Shown piece by piece: positions 1 to 16,003 of a stretch of 53,092 nucleotides of DNA; the first letter of the stretch is position 1; the number at the start of each line of letters is the position of its first letter. The stretch lies in the sequence record NC_047830.1. One strand, written 5' to 3'. A program made the position numbers and the translations under genes. This DNA comes from Escherichia phage ST32. Under the pieces are notes generated by a model. That model was not told the DNA's origin. It saw only the letters and a list, made by a program, of their open reading frames with translations, and did not search any database.

Positions 1-172
1 TTGGATACGGTGAAGGCTGACGTTTGTCAGTTATATGCGAGAAGAGATTCGATGCGTTAGCGTCGTTTCTCTTTGAGCTAGAATAAAACAAGTAAATTAA
101 ATATTTATTTATTCCCAATATTGCTACAATATTAAGAGTAATATTAGGAATGCGTAAAGTCAAAACCAAATG

Positions 173-238
173 GTACATGGTCGGTCAACTGTACCTGGAT
201 AGTAATTCGTTCATGGTCGGTCAGCTGTATCTCGCCGA
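173..238 (+). repeat. two direct copies of CATGGTCGGTCA(A/G)CTGTA (about 173-200 and 211-236); third related copy at 3596-3614
   Basis: repeat read directly from sequence; first copy flanked by inverted GGTAC/GTACC. Confidence 0.6.
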
Positions 239-317
239 AATTTGTTCGAATGGAAAACCGACTATTAAATAATTTTTTTTTATAATTTTTTTTTTATTTC
301 AATATTGCTACAGAATT

Positions 318-401
318 AATGAGACTAGAATTCGTAACAAAGCTACGAGACTCGAATTGTTACGAATTGTTACGATATTAACGAGACTAGAATTGTGGCA
401 A
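318..401 (+). repeat. iteron-like cluster: three copies of GAGACT(A/C)GAATT plus tandem GAATTGTTAC x2
   Basis: direct repeats at about 321, 347 and 383 in the non-coding leader upstream of the RNA polymerase gene. Confidence 0.6.
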
Positions 402-588
402 TATTATAATTTTTTTATTTTGGGCCAGCGGGGAGGGGAAGCCCAACGTCCTATCGGACTTAAAATACGGTCCCTACTCCAACTTTTTCCTACAGCCTAT
501 CGGCTTTCAAACAACACCAAGTTAGGCGCTTCGCTTATGGGTCAAGGTCAAAGTCTCCGTGCTGTTGTAACAATGGCACAGGTTTGTG

Positions 589-606
589 ATATTAGTTGGA
601 AGTGAA
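589..606 (+). promoter_or_regulatory. conserved phage promoter-like motif (ATTAGTTGGAAGTGAA), upstream of RNA polymerase gene
   Basis: member of an 11-copy family with consensus CATTAGTTGGATGTGAA, all in intergenic DNA upstream of + strand genes. Confidence 0.5.
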
Positions 607-672
607 TTGTGTAATGGCTACGCTATTATAATCCGTTTCAGTTAAATCATACACAATCTTGGAGACTTACAA

Positions 673-2613
673 ATGACTACTATCACCACTCAAACTATCA
701 AATCCGTTGTTCCTGCTATCACTGCTCTGGTATACCGTGCCAAAGAGAAACAGAACTATATGCAGCCTCAGACTTGTGCTATTGCTGCCTTAGCCATCTT
801 CAAGATGATGACGTCTTTCACTCGTGATGACGTTGTTCCTGCCATCGCGATGGTTGAGCTGGCTTCTGCTTCTATTGCTGATGCCAACCGTTATAACAAC
901 GATTTGAAAGCAATGCACTATGTTGACCCAGCTATCAACCTCATTGGTCTGGCTAAGCACTTTGGCTTCATTACCATGAACGAAGACAAGTCATTCCAAC
1001 AAACTGATACATGGGTTGAACTGGTTACAACCAAAGACACAGCAGTGCCATTCACTGAACGTGTTACATCTGAATCTCGTCGCAAGCCTTTCGTTAAAGG
1101 TGGCAAAGTTAAGCCATCCAAGACTCTGAAAGCTGCAATCGAATTCCTGCAAGATACTGAGTACCATGTGGAGACTGAGATGGTTCGCATCATCCAGTCC
1201 ATGCTTGAGCAACGTACTTATGGCGGCTTGCAGATGCCAGAAGCAATCCAGACTGAACTCCATGTTTGGAACAATGCTGTAGCAATGATGAATCAGGACA
1301 CGCTGTATTCTGACTACTTTGCTGATAACCGTGGTCGCCTGTATCATGTAGCATGTGCTGGTCCTAACCCACAATCATCTGACTTTGCTCGTTGCTTGTA
1401 TTCTCACAATGTTGAGAACATCGTTAAGAAGTTTAACGAAGATGGTTCTACTACCATTGCATACAACATGTTCATGGCAGAGCTGGAAGATATTTCCGGT
1501 GGTGAATGGTGCAGTGCTAAGCGTCTGACTTATGTTGCTCAGAATCCAGCTGGTTCACTTGCTCGCATGATGAACATGCCTAAAGCTGAACGTCCTTCTA
1601 AGCCATTCACTTATGTTCGTCTGGCTCTGGATTGGTTCAAGTTTGAGACTACAGGTGAATGCGATTCTCGTGTAGGCTTTGGCTTAGATGCTAAATGTTC
1701 TGGTACTCAATATCTGGCATTCATTGCTGGTAACATGGAAATGGCTCGTGCAACAGGTCTGGTTGATTCTGAGACTAAAGCATCTGACCCATACCAGTTG
1801 AGTCTTCGTGAACTGTTGAAGCTGCTGGATAAATCTTCAATGAAGCCATCTCCTGAAATCATGGATGAATTCTTGAATCCGAAAGCTGGTCGTAAGTTTA
1901 TCAAAACTCCATACATGGCTATTCAATATGGTGGTGGTAAAGCTGCATTGACTGGCTCTTCTGACTTCATTAGCTACATGACAGAAGCACTCCAGATTCC
2001 TATGGAGAAAGCTGAGGCATTTGCTGAACTGTGTGTGGAAGCAATCCATAACGCATTGGGTGCTAAGATTAACATGTTCATTGAGAAAGCTGCTGATGCT
2101 GCATACAACCGTTGTGTTGAACTTGGTAAAGAGTATATCACATATCGTCACACTGATGGTCAGGTTGTAATGAAGCCTTGCTTCCCATCTCGTGAAATCT
2201 GTGAGGCATTCAGCATTCGTGTTGATTCTCAAACTCGTGTCATCTTTGGTCAGATTCAGGAGAATAAGCCTTGGACCATTCGTGAATCCAATCCAACTAA
2301 AGAAGAATTCAAGCGTACTTTCGTTGTTAACTACATTCAAGGTATTGATGCACTTGTTGCTCGTACTGTTGCAGTTAAAGCTAAAGAAGCTGGTCTTCGT
2401 GGCTTCACTTCAATCCATGATTGTTTCCGTTGCTGTTTGGCAGATGCTCCACGCATGATGGAAGTTATTCGTGCAGCATATGTTGAAATCTTTGTAACCA
2501 ACAATCAATTCGAGAATCTGTCTAAGCAACTTGGTGGCATTCAGATGTATCATGAGAACATCGTAACCGAAGAGCTTCTGATGAGCGAACACGCTTACTA
2601 CTTCTGCCAGTAA
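673..2613 (+). CDS. single-subunit DNA-dependent RNA polymerase, compact (646 aa)
   Basis: T7 RNAP-like motifs in order: GLDAKCSGTQ (motif A), RKFIKTPYMAIQYGGG (motif B), IHDCFRC (motif C); GGAGA RBS 7 nt upstream of the ATG. Confidence 0.85.
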   Translation: MTTITTQTIKSVVPAITALVYRAKEKQNYMQPQTCAIAALAIFKMMTSFTRDDVVPAIAMVELASASIADANRYNNDLKAMHYVDPAINLIGLAKHFGFITMNEDKSFQQTDTWVELVTTKDTAVPFTERVTSESRRKPFVKGGKVKPSKTLKAAIEFLQDTEYHVETEMVRIIQSMLEQRTYGGLQMPEAIQTELHVWNNAVAMMNQDTLYSDYFADNRGRLYHVACAGPNPQSSDFARCLYSHNVENIVKKFNEDGSTTIAYNMFMAELEDISGGEWCSAKRLTYVAQNPAGSLARMMNMPKAERPSKPFTYVRLALDWFKFETTGECDSRVGFGLDAKCSGTQYLAFIAGNMEMARATGLVDSETKASDPYQLSLRELLKLLDKSSMKPSPEIMDEFLNPKAGRKFIKTPYMAIQYGGGKAALTGSSDFISYMTEALQIPMEKAEAFAELCVEAIHNALGAKINMFIEKAADAAYNRCVELGKEYITYRHTDGQVVMKPCFPSREICEAFSIRVDSQTRVIFGQIQENKPWTIRESNPTKEEFKRTFVVNYIQGIDALVARTVAVKAKEAGLRGFTSIHDCFRCCLADAPRMMEVIRAAYVEIFVTNNQFENLSKQLGGIQMYHENIVTEELLMSEHAYYFCQ

Positions 2614-2633
2614 CAACTATGTGCCAAGGATGG

Positions 2634-2650
2634 CATTAGTTGCATGTGAA
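2634..2650 (+). promoter_or_regulatory. conserved phage promoter-like motif CATTAGTTGCATGTGAA
   Basis: motif family member; 29 bp upstream of the 2679 start. Confidence 0.5.
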
Positions 2651-2678
2651 TCTAATAAAACAATTTGGAGACTTTATA

Positions 2679-2846
2679 ATGTTTACAGTGACCTTAGTAA
2701 CCTATTACGGCAAACAAGTTTGTGAGAAGTTTGAGACTTTAGAAGAAGCAAGAGCTTTTGCAGCTCGTGAAGAGAATATCTATGTAGAGTGTGAAATCAC
2801 TGATGGTGATATGTCATACGAAGTGGTTAAGCCTGCACTCAACTGA
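2679..2846 (+). CDS. hypothetical small protein
   Basis: ORF with GGAG RBS 8 nt upstream of ATG 2679; the track start at 2640 lies inside the promoter motif. Confidence 0.5.
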   Translation: MFTVTLVTYYGKQVCEKFETLEEARAFAAREENIYVECEITDGDMSYEVVKPALN

Positions 2847-2858
2847 TTCCTAATATTC

Positions 2859-2887
2859 GGACAATATTGTTGCATGTAATATTGTCC
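2859..2887 (+). repeat. inverted repeat GGACAATATT-N9-AATATTGTCC with a GCATGT box in the spacer
   Basis: perfect 10-bp arms read from sequence. Confidence 0.6.
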
Positions 2888-2897
2888 CGATATTCGA

Positions 2898-2914
2898 CAT
2901 TAGTTGGATGTGAA
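2898..2914 (+). promoter_or_regulatory. conserved phage promoter-like motif CATTAGTTGGATGTGAA
   Basis: exact consensus copy; no annotated ORF immediately downstream. Confidence 0.5.
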
Positions 2915-3298
2915 GTAAAAGAATACGGAGAAATATTCCGCATGTCATGTTGAATCATTCTAGAAACATTCAGCATGTCAGCTTTGAGTTACAGTGTTGT
3001 AATGATGTGGCAATCATTGAACTCCCTAGGTAGGCCACCTACAGTTCCAGCAACCATGACTTAGAGTAGGAATATCTATCCGAAACTTGGACTTCACCTA
3101 TAGCATGTTCAATTGCGACAATATTGCTCCATCTCCTATTATAAAGGCCCACCCACAAGCCGGGAGATAACTTTGGTAATATTGGAACTTTTGGACATGC
3201 TTCTTTCTTTCAATCAGAATTCGAAAGAAGAGAAGAAGTCGGACAAAGCCGCGAAACTAATCCCGTAGCCCGCCCCGATTTTGAGCAACAAATATTGT

Positions 3299-3310
3299 GA
3301 CAATATTGTC
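3299..3310 (+). repeat. perfect 12-bp palindrome GACAATATTGTC (operator-like)
   Basis: self-complementary 12-mer; related half-sites CAATATTG recur through 2860-3560 and at 110-130, 300-310. Confidence 0.5.
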
Positions 3311-3750
3311 GCAGTATGGCATGTAAATATTGCTACAAATTGGCATGTTGGAATGTGGCAGAATTGTTAGAGGACTAATCACCTCGAAGATACAATCGTC
3401 TACCAATCTGGCATGTTAATTTTGTAACAGTATTTGTGCCAATTTCGCATGTAATAGCTGTATCAGTATTAACCCAATATTCTTGCAACCCGCATGAATA
3501 CTGGCTTCCAGCCAAGCGAAGGCTTTATCATCGCATGTAAATATTGTGACAATATTGGGATAAAACCCTTTATTTAATTAGTTTTATTATGCTGTACATG
3601 GTCGGTTTTCCGTACCTATTGCGCCACTTCTTGATGTGCCAAATACATTCCAAGATAGGAGCAAACCTGTAATTAATGATGCATGTTTAATTGTGACAAA
3701 ATTCGTCTATTTGGCAGATGAGTTAGTTGCAATTAAGCATGTCCATTTAT

Positions 3751-3767
3751 CATTAGTTGCATGTGAA
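3751..3767 (+). promoter_or_regulatory. conserved phage promoter-like motif CATTAGTTGCATGTGAA
   Basis: motif family member; about 190 bp upstream of first early gene. Confidence 0.5.
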
Positions 3768-3873
3768 TAAGACCAAATCTCTGTAAATTTTGCTGAAATT
3801 GTGTGACAGATTTTAGAGAGATTATGTCTCCAAGCTAATCATTGTAGTTTTTCGGCACTTGCTGTGTCACATA

Positions 3874-3935
3874 CTCCCTACAGCTTTAAGGTGGATTGAG
3901 GTAAGACAAGACCTCCACAATCGTTATGTAGGGAG
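3874..3935 (+). promoter_or_regulatory. 5' leader hairpin (9-bp outer stem CTCCCTACA/TGTAGGGAG enclosing an inner stem); candidate RNase III-type processing or translational control element
   Basis: perfect inverted repeat 3874-3882 / 3927-3935, 24 nt upstream of the 3959 start. Confidence 0.4.
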
Positions 3936-3958
3936 TTCTTTTAACTTAGGAGAATAAA

Positions 3959-4177
3959 ATGACTCGTTTTAAAGATTTGGAAGATGGTGCAATCTTCTTT
4001 ACGCGTGGTGGAGAACACCTGCAAAAAGTTTTGGAAGATGATATTAATGTAAATGCAGTATTCGTTGGTGATTCTAACATTGGTGTTTTATTAAATGACA
4101 ATGAGAGAACTTTTACCGAGGAGGAGTTTAAAGAAATCTCAGCCTCTGATTTAGTTCAAGAGCCAATTGAAGTTTAA
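3959..4177 (+). CDS. hypothetical early protein
   Basis: ORF with AGGAGA RBS. Confidence 0.55.
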   Translation: MTRFKDLEDGAIFFTRGGEHLQKVLEDDINVNAVFVGDSNIGVLLNDNERTFTEEEFKEISASDLVQEPIEV

Positions 4178-5355: not shown

Positions 5356-5667
5356 ATGGCTTCTTTACTCGAATTCTCAAATATTGCAAATGTTGCTAAG
5401 AATTCTATTCCTAAAAATCCAGATGTAGTTGCATACATGCGTGTTGATGTGAGTTTGTTGGCCTTTGTAATGGACCACATCAACCTTGTTGAAGAGCAGT
5501 TGCATCAAGCCAATGAAACAATTGATACTCTTCGTGAACTTCGTACAGCAGAGCAAAGTGCTTACGATGAACTGATGGAGCAGAAGAACAAGCTCCAAGA
5601 ACAGTTGGCAGATGCACTTCAACAAATTGAAGAACTGACGCCAACAGCCAGCTCAGCAACCAAATAA
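5356..5667 (+). CDS. hypothetical protein, predicted coiled coil
   Basis: ORF with AAGG RBS; heptad-like charged sequence. Confidence 0.55.
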   Translation: MASLLEFSNIANVAKNSIPKNPDVVAYMRVDVSLLAFVMDHINLVEEQLHQANETIDTLRELRTAEQSAYDELMEQKNKLQEQLADALQQIEELTPTASSATK

Positions 5668-13871: not shown

Positions 13872-14546
13872 ATGTCTTATCATGATGATGACAAAGAGAT
13901 TGCACTATCAACGTGTAAGCAATGGCTCAATGATAATGATGCCGTCTATCTTGCCAAGGAAGATGTTATCATTATGTGGGTCCATTTTAATCCAGAATCG
14001 AAGCGCGGTGAGTGGCAACGCTACAAGATGAAAGAGGCTTGTCGCATAATTAAAGCCACACGCGCTGGCTTCTCTGCCATGAAATATATTAAGCCGGAGA
14101 TGCTGATGCTTGCTGCACAGGAAGAAGAACGTGCATATAAGCAGGCTGTTAAATCTCGTTCAACTGTTCCTCCAGAGTTCTTTAATTTGGAGCGCGCTGG
14201 ACACTTCAACAATTTAGAAATGTTGACACTGTGCCTGTTGCAAGAATTAGTTGGAAGAGGACAAAACATTGAAGCTGTTTGTCTTGGAGAACTCATGAAA
14301 GAGTTGTTCTTGGCAAAGGGCTTTGCTGTGCCAAACCGAACTTTACGCTGGAAATTGTTGCGAGCAGTCGCGCAAGAAGCTGGTGTAGTTGTTCGTGACA
14401 GAACTAACCGACTTACCGTAACAGGAGTTGGGCGTTTTGTAGCAATCCAGATTGAGGGTTATGACGAATCAATCATCACTGAACTCACTGTCGCTGAGAC
14501 AAAGGATTTAGTAAATAAAACACTAGAACGATTCAATAGATATTGA
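13872..14546 (+). CDS. hypothetical protein (224 aa)
   Basis: long ORF, ATG start. Confidence 0.6.
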   Translation: MSYHDDDKEIALSTCKQWLNDNDAVYLAKEDVIIMWVHFNPESKRGEWQRYKMKEACRIIKATRAGFSAMKYIKPEMLMLAAQEEERAYKQAVKSRSTVPPEFFNLERAGHFNNLEMLTLCLLQELVGRGQNIEAVCLGELMKELFLAKGFAVPNRTLRWKLLRAVAQEAGVVVRDRTNRLTVTGVGRFVAIQIEGYDESIITELTVAETKDLVNKTLERFNRY

Positions 14547-14576
14547 GTCGTTTGACGAATCAGAGCAGTTCTGAAA

Positions 14577-15908: not shown

Positions 15909-16003
15909 GGACGAGTAGCTCAGAAGGTTTGCATTGTGCTCAGTCAGGTAGAGCAATCTGTTCGACAGATGTGTCGTTGGTTCGAATCCAACCTCGTCCG
16001 CCA
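15909..16003 (+). tRNA. tRNA-like gene, non-canonical (anticodon possibly UCG, Arg); may be a pseudo-tRNA
   Basis: 7-bp acceptor stem GGACGAG/CTCGTCC, T-arm GTTGG-TTCGAAT-CCAAC, encoded CCA; but a roughly 20-nt insertion (AGAAGGTTTGCATTGTGCTC) sits in the D-arm and the anticodon arm is ambiguous. Confidence 0.55.

Follow-up and report, generated by a model that had tools for sequence, protein, structure and literature searches.

A gene-free gap behind the RNA polymerase gene of Escherichia phage ST32 as a putative structured leader or noncoding RNA with a terminal-repeat end inside it

In phage T7, the interval between gene 1 and gene 1.1 contains the promoters phi1.1A and phi1.1B, the RNase III site R1.1, the primary replication origin and an AT-rich stretch. 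In ColE1, a long structured RNA (RNA II) lies upstream of the origin. In the present work, we examine a gap of 1112 bp (positions 2847-3958) that follows the RNA polymerase (RNAP) gene of Escherichia phage ST32, and for which the T7 interval, greatly expanded, would be the closest precedent. The window, i.e. the whole stretch of 53,092 bp that was analysed, is a complete phiEcoM-GJ1-like myophage genome (Chaseviridae, Carltongylesvirus); it is 85-97% identical in DNA to Carltongylesvirus genomes and is laid out as in phiEcoM-GJ1 (GJ1). Chasevirus genomes are non-permuted and bounded by direct terminal repeats (DTRs) of ~3 kb, and the ICTV's profile states that their promoters have not been identified (PMC12842549).

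We find that the gap is rich in repeats, conserved between genera and free of conserved open reading frames (ORFs), that its + strand folds more strongly than its − strand and into helices that covary, and that the right DTR ends of related phages map to its middle. On balance, though not by much, we think that the gap probably corresponds to a structured + strand RNA (a leader or a noncoding RNA) that the phage RNAP would synthesise, with the DTR cut site embedded in it. It would then be an untranslated spacer, conserved in the family, between the RNAP gene and the first early/middle genes. Transcription of the + strand by the phage RNAP would start at the promoter-like motif 2899 (and at 2635) and continue into the gene at 3959, and the RNA would form a series of seven or more long stem-loops. 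Our best guess at the function, made by analogy with T7, is that of a cis-acting leader that would be processed at its long duplexes in the manner of RNase III sites and would control the entry of phage-RNAP transcription into the early/middle genes. Processing and control of mRNA is the default here because long, nearly perfect duplexes of 17-27 bp, rich in A-U and G.U pairs, are RNase III substrates.

One striking repeat is the GCATGT box, which occurs 12 times on the + strand of the gap, where ~0.44 copies would be expected by length (21 + copies in the whole 53 kb), and only once, at 3195, on its − strand. The abundance of boxes reported in the initial annotation is thus borne out. The further statement that each is followed by an AATATTG-type sequence holds in part: an exact AATATTG follows three of them and an A/T-rich half-palindrome ending in TTG follows about eight. 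The larger repeat unit is a 17-bp palindrome, AATATTG-N3-CAATATT, usually located 0-2 nt after GCATGT. With up to three mismatches allowed, it has 20 matches against 4.6 expected, and 12 of these lie at 117-405 or 2852-3556. Both palindromes that had been pointed out earlier are exact, GACAATATTGTC at 3299-3310 and GGACAATATT-N9-AATATTGTCC at 2859-2887, and the CATGGTCGGT element is likewise present, with two more copies in the genome (Table 1). Two other sequences, AATATTGT (five of five copies in the gap) and GACAATATTG (four of four), are found nowhere else in the genome.

When the + strand is folded to its minimum free energy (MFE), the boxes pair with each other in stem-loops SL-A, SL-C and SL-F and with the reverse copy in SL-B (Table 1). 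The GCAUGU:GCAUGU pairing consists of four Watson-Crick pairs flanked by two terminal G.U pairs. Since GCAUGU can pair with itself in RNA while its complement ACAUGC cannot, this pairing would explain the 12:1 strand bias of the boxes. In these models, the GCATGT boxes, the TGTGRCA motifs and the AATATTG palindromes are for the most part the arms of predicted helices.

Four stem-loops were compared with their counterparts in related genomes. In H2 (seven genomes) 100% of the cells are paired and three pairs show compensatory double changes, and in H3 (seven genomes) 95.7% are paired, with four double-change pairs, including the replacement of GGC/GCC by GCC/GGC in Proteus phage Myduc. Compensatory double changes occur in nine of the 19 pairs of SL-C (11 genomes from ~8 genera, two of them from metagenomes) and in seven of the 23 pairs of SL-F (eight genomes). 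For each of H2, H3, SL-C and SL-F, the observed covariation score was reached by none of 500 column shuffles, and controls with slid partners collapsed. A strong hairpin is also found at the position of SL-0 in every genus compared, with + strand U.G pairs in phiA050 and PM1. Single-sequence folding gives a hairpin of ~100 nt capped by H3 in every genus at the position of SL-B, the lower stems differing in sequence; RNAalifold did not recover the basal helix of SL-B, because the alignment shifts there. Finally, the leader hairpin noted initially is confirmed at 3873-3936 on the + strand (−25 kcal/mol, z −3.8). It is followed by a ribosome-binding site at ~3947-3952 and by the first gene, and most genera have a CUCCC...GGGAG hairpin at this position.

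The folding is strand-specific. On the + strand, the z scores of SL-B, SL-C and SL-F from dinucleotide-preserving shuffles are −4.3, −5.5 and −7.7, compared with −1.5, −3.8 and −2.1 on the − strand, and the fold energy of SL-F is −37.6 kcal/mol on the + strand vs −14.6 kcal/mol on the − strand. This advantage of + over − is kept in six genera. The z score of a 520-nt tile at 3241-3760 is −9.8; for 14 tiles taken from other parts of the genome, the mean is −1.7 (standard deviation 1.1, minimum −4.5). In Myduc, ZPAH14 and VPs20, the homologous gap is unusually structured as well. With DNA parameters the same shapes are obtained at less than half the energy of the RNA-parameter folds. We infer that the folding strand is RNA rather than single-stranded + strand DNA.

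The near-invariant loop of H3 and the conserved apex of SL-C suggest specific partners beyond generic processing. One may also consider a large structured noncoding RNA of 0.35-1 kb, built of self-pairing GCAUGU modules, that would act beyond mRNA processing as a ColE1-like replication primer, as a terminal-repeat cofactor or in trans; we regard this as a minority possibility. In the trans-acting variant, the RNA could multimerise via its self-complementary motifs and take over a host function or counter host defence. A search with the Rfam 15 covariance models gave no family match, the only hits being three sub-threshold matches to microRNA models (E ≥0.03) that we take as noise, and a scan of IMG/VR with a 16-mer of the H3 loop returned just the already-known chaseviruses and chance matches.

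The gap is also conserved outside the genus. It is 62-69% identical across genera over aligned columns, compared with 71-75% for the RNAP gene (66-76% protein identity) and 40-43% for shuffled sequences. Myduc, PM1, Y2, ZPAH14 and VPs20 each have 1.0-1.35 kb without genes behind their RNAP gene. Members of Cleopatravirinae have 9-13 copies of GCATGT in the equivalent gap, all on the + strand. In ZPAH14 (L016 3078-3450) and VPs20 (L017 2649-3058) the architecture is the same with a different box: seven GTATGA(GAC) boxes, all on the + strand and often adjoining CTATG/CATAG. By these comparisons, the gap is a hallmark of the family and is under selection.

Small proteins below the ORF cutoff, which the initial annotation had named as a competing explanation of any conservation, are in our view a very improbable cause of it. 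In agreement with that annotation, no ORF of 60 aa or more overlaps the gap, the longest having 51 aa (3113-3268 on the + strand and 3946-4101 on the − strand). Some GenBank records do annotate three to seven small hypothetical proteins here, and an antisense frame of 32 codons (2850-2948, MTCGI...LHIQLM...) is open in most genera. However, no frame is conserved: eight of nine candidate frames contain stops or frameshifts in other genera, the indels in the gap are not multiples of three, and every gene of the genome is on the + strand. The antisense frame itself is interrupted in GJ1 and Mangalitsa, and is probably a by-product of the conservation of a promoter motif and a hairpin.

The repeated palindromes had originally been taken as operators for a dimeric DNA-binding protein, and they do exceed chance. 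In its general form, this explanation would make the gap an operator or iteron array for a dimeric phage or host protein, including the case of a T5-like injection-stop region where the left repeat has its inner end; the left terminal repeat of phage T5 contains a large untranslated region rich in repeats and palindromes, with the signal for the injection stop (bioRxiv 10.1101/866236). The 17-bp palindrome has three perfect and about nine near-perfect copies, each amounting to 8-bp palindromes at 11-bp spacing. Their sequence is conserved across genera and they also occur to the left of the DTR, which keeps the operator idea alive. It is nevertheless weakened by the fact that the very same sequences form covarying, + strand-specific helices, as a constraint on duplex DNA would give neither a strand preference nor compensatory changes. 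Moreover, no helix-turn-helix or other DNA-binding domain was found in the ten early proteins with Pfam and PHROGs, where all but one are of 'unknown function' in PHROGs; the exception, the early protein encoded at 5356-5664, also has weak coiled-coil-type matches (E ~6e-4) to integrase and SbcC-like families. A host factor as the palindrome-binding protein is possible. The DnaA-box cluster of T5 has no counterpart, since TTWTNCACA matches once in the gap (3770) and six times genome-wide, and a sigma-70 promoter scan showed no enrichment (10 sites vs 12 expected). Taken together, we consider an operator array improbable. In a comparison by hand, the operators of CRP, ArcA, Fur and LacI did not fit the spacing and were rejected.

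Concerning transcription, the initial annotation had counted three copies of the promoter motif ATTAGTTGSATGTGAA in the gap. Two of them (2899 and 3752) are indeed there, while the third, at 2635, lies just outside. The rightward motifs at 2635 and 2899 are kept in 10 of 10 aligned genomes from seven Cleopatravirinae genera or lineages, and no terminator-like site was found on the + strand before gene 3959. SL-A to SL-G and the leader hairpin would thus all be part of a transcript started at these motifs. The earlier suggestion of an early control region fits with two promoter-like motifs conserved across the aligned genera and a leader hairpin ahead of the first downstream gene. We also considered the boxes as a second class of promoter. 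The composite GCATGT-N4-7-TGYNRCA occurs six times, all in 3103-3700, with none upstream of genes elsewhere, and the upstream half of the promoter motif is absent, so that this candidate was rejected. No transcriptome for the chasevirus family was found in the literature.

Some further observations on promoters can be recorded here. Within the first 4.5 kb, the highest-ranking sigma-70-like match is at 3841-3870 on the − strand (GTGACA-N18-TACAAT, 10/12). It points leftward over a block, GGCAC...GTGTCACA, that all genera conserve, and an antisense transcript could arise from it. At 591-631, just upstream of the RNAP gene and within the mapped DTR, a promoter-like motif that deviates at one position, ATTAGTTGGAAGTGAA, stands ahead of an exact TATAAT (~626-631), likely a host promoter for early RNAP expression. 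The sigma-70 promoter annotated in GJ1 (364-393) would fall outside the DTR. Finally, BLAST similarity to different relatives begins exactly at promoter-like motifs (window 2633-2650 and 2897-2914), which suggests that these motifs may be recombination breakpoints between mosaic modules.

The main landmark of the gap, the right end of the DTR, had been missed in the initial annotation. The window carries only one copy of the DTR, and the ends were therefore placed by homology mapping from relatives with described ends (PMC12842549, PMC6753284, PMC8762354): PM1 and Y2, whose records contain both copies (repeat lengths of 2665 and 2608 bp), Mangalitsa, 4HA13 and Myduc, which have PhageTerm annotations, and Faunus, through the opening point of its record. 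In these six phages the repeat starts align to window 455-460 (...CCTATCG↓GACTTAAAATACGG, the arrow marking the junction) and the repeat ends align within ~5 bp of 3240↓3241 (...GAAGAGAAGAAGTC↓GGACAAAG). We infer that a DTR of ~2.8 kb would have its right end at ~3240, in the middle of the gap. The closing ~400 bp of the DTR would thus form the left part of the gap, and the ~700 bp beyond the DTR end would be unique DNA. The distant phage ZPAH14, with an RNAP only 34% identical, has record-end repeats of 3373 bp, and there too the repeat ends within the gap that follows the RNAP gene.

The right end falls between two stem-loops, directly after a purine-rich tract. Such a tract on the + strand, followed by a TC↓G(G/A) junction, is found at both DTR ends (window 430-456 and 3222-3241), in direct and not inverted orientation. 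It precedes the DTR end in every genome examined (PM1, Y2, 4HA13, Mangalitsa, Myduc and ZPAH14), the tracts and TC↓G(G/A)-type junctions of ZPAH14 being located at L016 3330-3373 and L018 ~3520-3557. In addition, related palindromes, CATGGTCGGT elements and a 54-nt inverted repeat flank the DTR, on its left as well as on its right. The CATGGTCGGT elements are 250-280 bp before the DTR start and ~357 bp after its end, at the same distances in PM1, and bracketing of this type is also seen in PYps23T, SA91KD and phiA050. PYps23T is an exception as regards the ends, as its published repeat of 2339 bp corresponds to window 601 to 2908 and runs from one promoter-like motif to another. Both of its junctions (L005/L006) come directly after ATTAGTTGGA, within two copies of the promoter-like motif, and the repeat is either a real alternative or an artefact of template switching at a repeated 10-mer during the polymerase chain reaction. 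In Myduc (L015 2767-3202), a module of ~218 bp with a GCATGT box, an H3-type stem-loop, the purine-rich tract and GGTGAC is tandemly duplicated, and the PhageTerm repeat end comes after the second copy.

These surroundings raise the option that the stem-loops and elements flanking the DTR, as RNA or as extruded or displaced DNA, mark the cut sites of the terminase or make the phage RNAP pause. The model would be analogous to the pause site of the T7 concatemer junction and the short-repeat arrays that adjoin the T7 terminal repeat. In T7, transcription has been implicated in end formation. The T7 signal is a single element of 15-18 bp with a 7-base core (bioRxiv 10.64898/2026.02.12.705533). 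Besides this precedent, the model draws on the location of the DTR end within the gap in seven relatives, the shared tract and junction at the two ends, the bracketing elements at similar distances, conserved in PM1 and others, and the duplication in Myduc of SL-B and the purine tract beside the cut site. On the other hand, the box array is found at the right DTR boundary only, most stem-loops are hundreds of bases from the cut, and no small terminase subunit or terminus-binding protein was identified. We hold a packaging function tentatively, as possible though rather unlikely to be what the stem-loops are for. It is compatible with the leader or noncoding RNA that we favour, and the roles in replication origin, packaging, operators and injection stop do not exclude each other.

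A replication origin was the first interpretation given to the gap. In this scenario, the transcript from 2899 would reach the AT-rich spacer at 3560-3597 and the TGGTC at 3599, and provide an R-loop or a primer for the T7-like DNA polymerase and primase-helicase that the phage encodes, similarly to the T7 primary origin or to RNA II of ColE1, where a long structured RNA upstream of the origin offers a precedent. The location just downstream of the RNAP gene is that of T7. The gap was also described as AT-rich, and its GC content of 38.2% vs 44.1% for the genome is in the lowest 1-2% of 1.1-kb windows, but the effect is modest, and the most AT-rich stretch nearby, 261-300, is outside the gap. 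The best remaining argument for an origin is the spacer itself, whose composition is conserved and which is followed by a near-invariant (T)GGTCGG with a T7-type primase site. However, no test of a T7-style origin gave positive support. The nearest upstream promoter motif (2899) is ~660 nt from the AT-rich segment, while the two are adjacent in T7, and the next motif (3752) is downstream of the segment. No clusters of DnaA or IHF sites were found in the gap, the skew profile is uninformative about the origin, and the CATGGTCGGT element with its primase-type site occurs twice more to the left of the DTR. The T7-type primase pentamers [GT][GT]GTC are mildly enriched (8 vs 4.6 on the − strand), mostly as a by-product of the palindromes. 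We consider an origin possible but unlikely.

It is important to point out what weighs against the RNA reading that we favour. Both the promoters and the RNA are putative. The + strand is G-rich genome-wide, so that some of its advantage over the − strand is generic, and in control coding windows the two strands can be as much as 61 kcal/mol apart. For this reason, the difference in MFE between the strands of the whole region is not diagnostic by itself, and the case therefore rests on the per-domain values and on the covariation, for which 7-11 related sequences were used. Several motifs, such as AATATTGTGACAATATT and GCATGT, are conserved in sequence and do not covary, which is what one expects of protein-binding sites. 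Palindromes occur also to the left of the DTR, in a stretch with weak predicted structure (z −2.6) that may or may not be transcribed. Folding of the + strand as single-stranded DNA is possible as well.

The coordinates of the genes, motifs and predicted structures are collected in Table 1.

Table 1. Features of the gap and its surroundings in the ST32 window. Stem-loops and helices are predicted; DTR ends are placed by homology.
Feature	Position	Strand	Remarks
Window start			just after nrdB
Related noncoding module left of DTR	100-460	+	palindromes 117-133, 301-317, 389-405; CATGGTCGGT at 176, 212; T-runs; purine-rich tract; DTR left end
DTR left end	455↓456		TCG↓GAC
Single-subunit RNAP gene	673-2613	+	
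55-codon gene	2680-2846	+	
Gap	2847-3958		
GCATGT boxes	2872, 2940, 2973, 3103, 3319, 3343, 3411, 3447, 3533, 3681, 3737, 3759	+	
SL-0	2857-2890	+	GGACAATATT-N9-AATATTGTCC palindrome; box 2872 in hairpin loop; directly upstream of promoter motif 2899
Promoter-like motif ATTAGTTGGATGTGAA	2899-2914	+	'putative phage promoter 1' in phiEcoM-GJ1; kept in 10/10 aligned genomes
SL-A	2943-2980	+	box 2940/box 2973; + strand −13.9 kcal/mol, z −3.4 vs − strand z −0.8
H2	3019-3047	+	invariant outer helix GAACU/AGUUC, covarying inner helix
SL-B (~100 nt)	3102-3201	+	basal helix box 3103/ACATGC 3195; cap is H3
H3	3131-3168	+	caps SL-B; near-invariant loop UAUUAUAAAGGCCCACCCACAAGCC
H4 hairpin	3202-3238	+	3' arm is purine-rich tract GAAAGAAGAGAAGAAG directly before DTR end; MFE fold
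DTR right end	3236-3245		cut near GAAGTC↓GGAC, 3240↓3241
Overlapping perfect palindromes AATATTGTGACAATATT and GACAATATTGTC	3291-3317	+	predicted small hairpin
SL-C	3318-3440, core 3341-3418	+	box 3343/box 3411; TGTGGCA and AATATTG-type motifs are further arms; apex conserved
Long-range helix CCCAATATTCTTGCAA/TTGTGACAATATTGGG	3473-3559	+	encloses boxes 3492, 3533; prediction only
AT/T-rich spacer	3560-3597	+	~19% GC; sequence variable between genera, composition kept
CATGGTCGGT-N4-YGTAYCT element	3597-3617	+	includes TGGTC (T7-type primase site); paralogues left of DTR at 176-196, 212-232
SL-F	3669-3760, core 3681-3742	+	box 3681/box 3737; GUGAC/GUUGC with two wobble pairs
Promoter-like motif ATTAGTTGCATGTGAA	3752-3767	+	'putative phage promoter 2' in GJ1; includes box 3759
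SL-G	3776-3823	+	prediction only
Next gene	3959-4177	+	

A few observations concern the genome as a whole. GATC occurs only twice in the window, an extreme avoidance of the Dam/MboI-type site. ARAGORN predicts a 95-nt tRNA-Leu(CAG) at 15909-16003, and the tRNA scan found none within the gap. The GJ1 record has a single 95-nt tRNA at 14456-14550, annotated as tRNA-Arg that 'may contain an intron'. One record, under the name Staphylococcus phage Pel53 (host S. hyicus), shares 90% identity with this coliphage region, and its host assignment looks doubtful.

Chaseviruses are among the phages now isolated for therapy and biocontrol, and their transcription signals, origin and end formation have so far not been described. 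A literature search on chaseviruses returned no description of the gap or of its arrangement. The gap, which in some records is filled with the hypothetical proteins mentioned above, lies at a point where T7-like systems combine their signals for transcription, replication and packaging, and it can now be viewed as a set of testable elements: a homology-mapped cut site of a 2.8-kb DTR, four stem-loops supported by covariation, and the GCAUGU:GCAUGU rule. If the RNA is real, few conserved noncoding elements of small lytic phages would be as large. At minimum, the genome annotations of the family and the choice of the genome start point can be corrected.

As to known systems, the gap resembles GOLLD, ROOL and ColE1 RNA II in having several hundred nucleotides with multiple covarying helices, conserved loops and no coding capacity. 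It differs from them in that it has no sequence or structure match in Rfam 15 and that discrete RNA ends are hypothetical. Like the left-repeat region of T5, it is large, conserved and without genes, it abounds in repeats, inverted repeats and palindromes, and it is found where a long terminal repeat with the earliest genes has its inner end (bioRxiv 10.1101/866236). The T5 region, however, is wholly within the repeat and has eight DnaA boxes, whereas in ST32 the repeat ends in mid-region, a DnaA-box cluster is lacking and the covarying helices are strand-specific. For an injection stop of the T5 type, the genomic context thus matches and the content does not. The T7 concatemer junction, with its class II pause/terminator and short-repeat arrays, is similar in that orientation-dependent motifs or arrays lie by the terminal repeat in a phage that encodes a single-subunit RNAP of its own, and dissimilar in that ST32 has 12 boxes, 8-10 of which are predicted to be in helices.

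The comparison with the T7 interval between genes 1 and 1.1 is the closest one. In both phages the region is directly downstream of the gene for the single-subunit RNAP, contains promoter motifs, hairpins and an AT-rich stretch, and is followed by small early genes, all rightward. The ST32 gap differs in being ~5 times longer, in its at least seven long stem-loops of self-pairing repeated motifs, in the ~660 nt that separate its AT-rich stretch from the upstream promoter motif, and in the terminal-repeat end inside it. What would be new here is a structured intergenic leader, beside the RNAP gene of a T7-like transcription system, that is fused to the boundary of a long terminal repeat.

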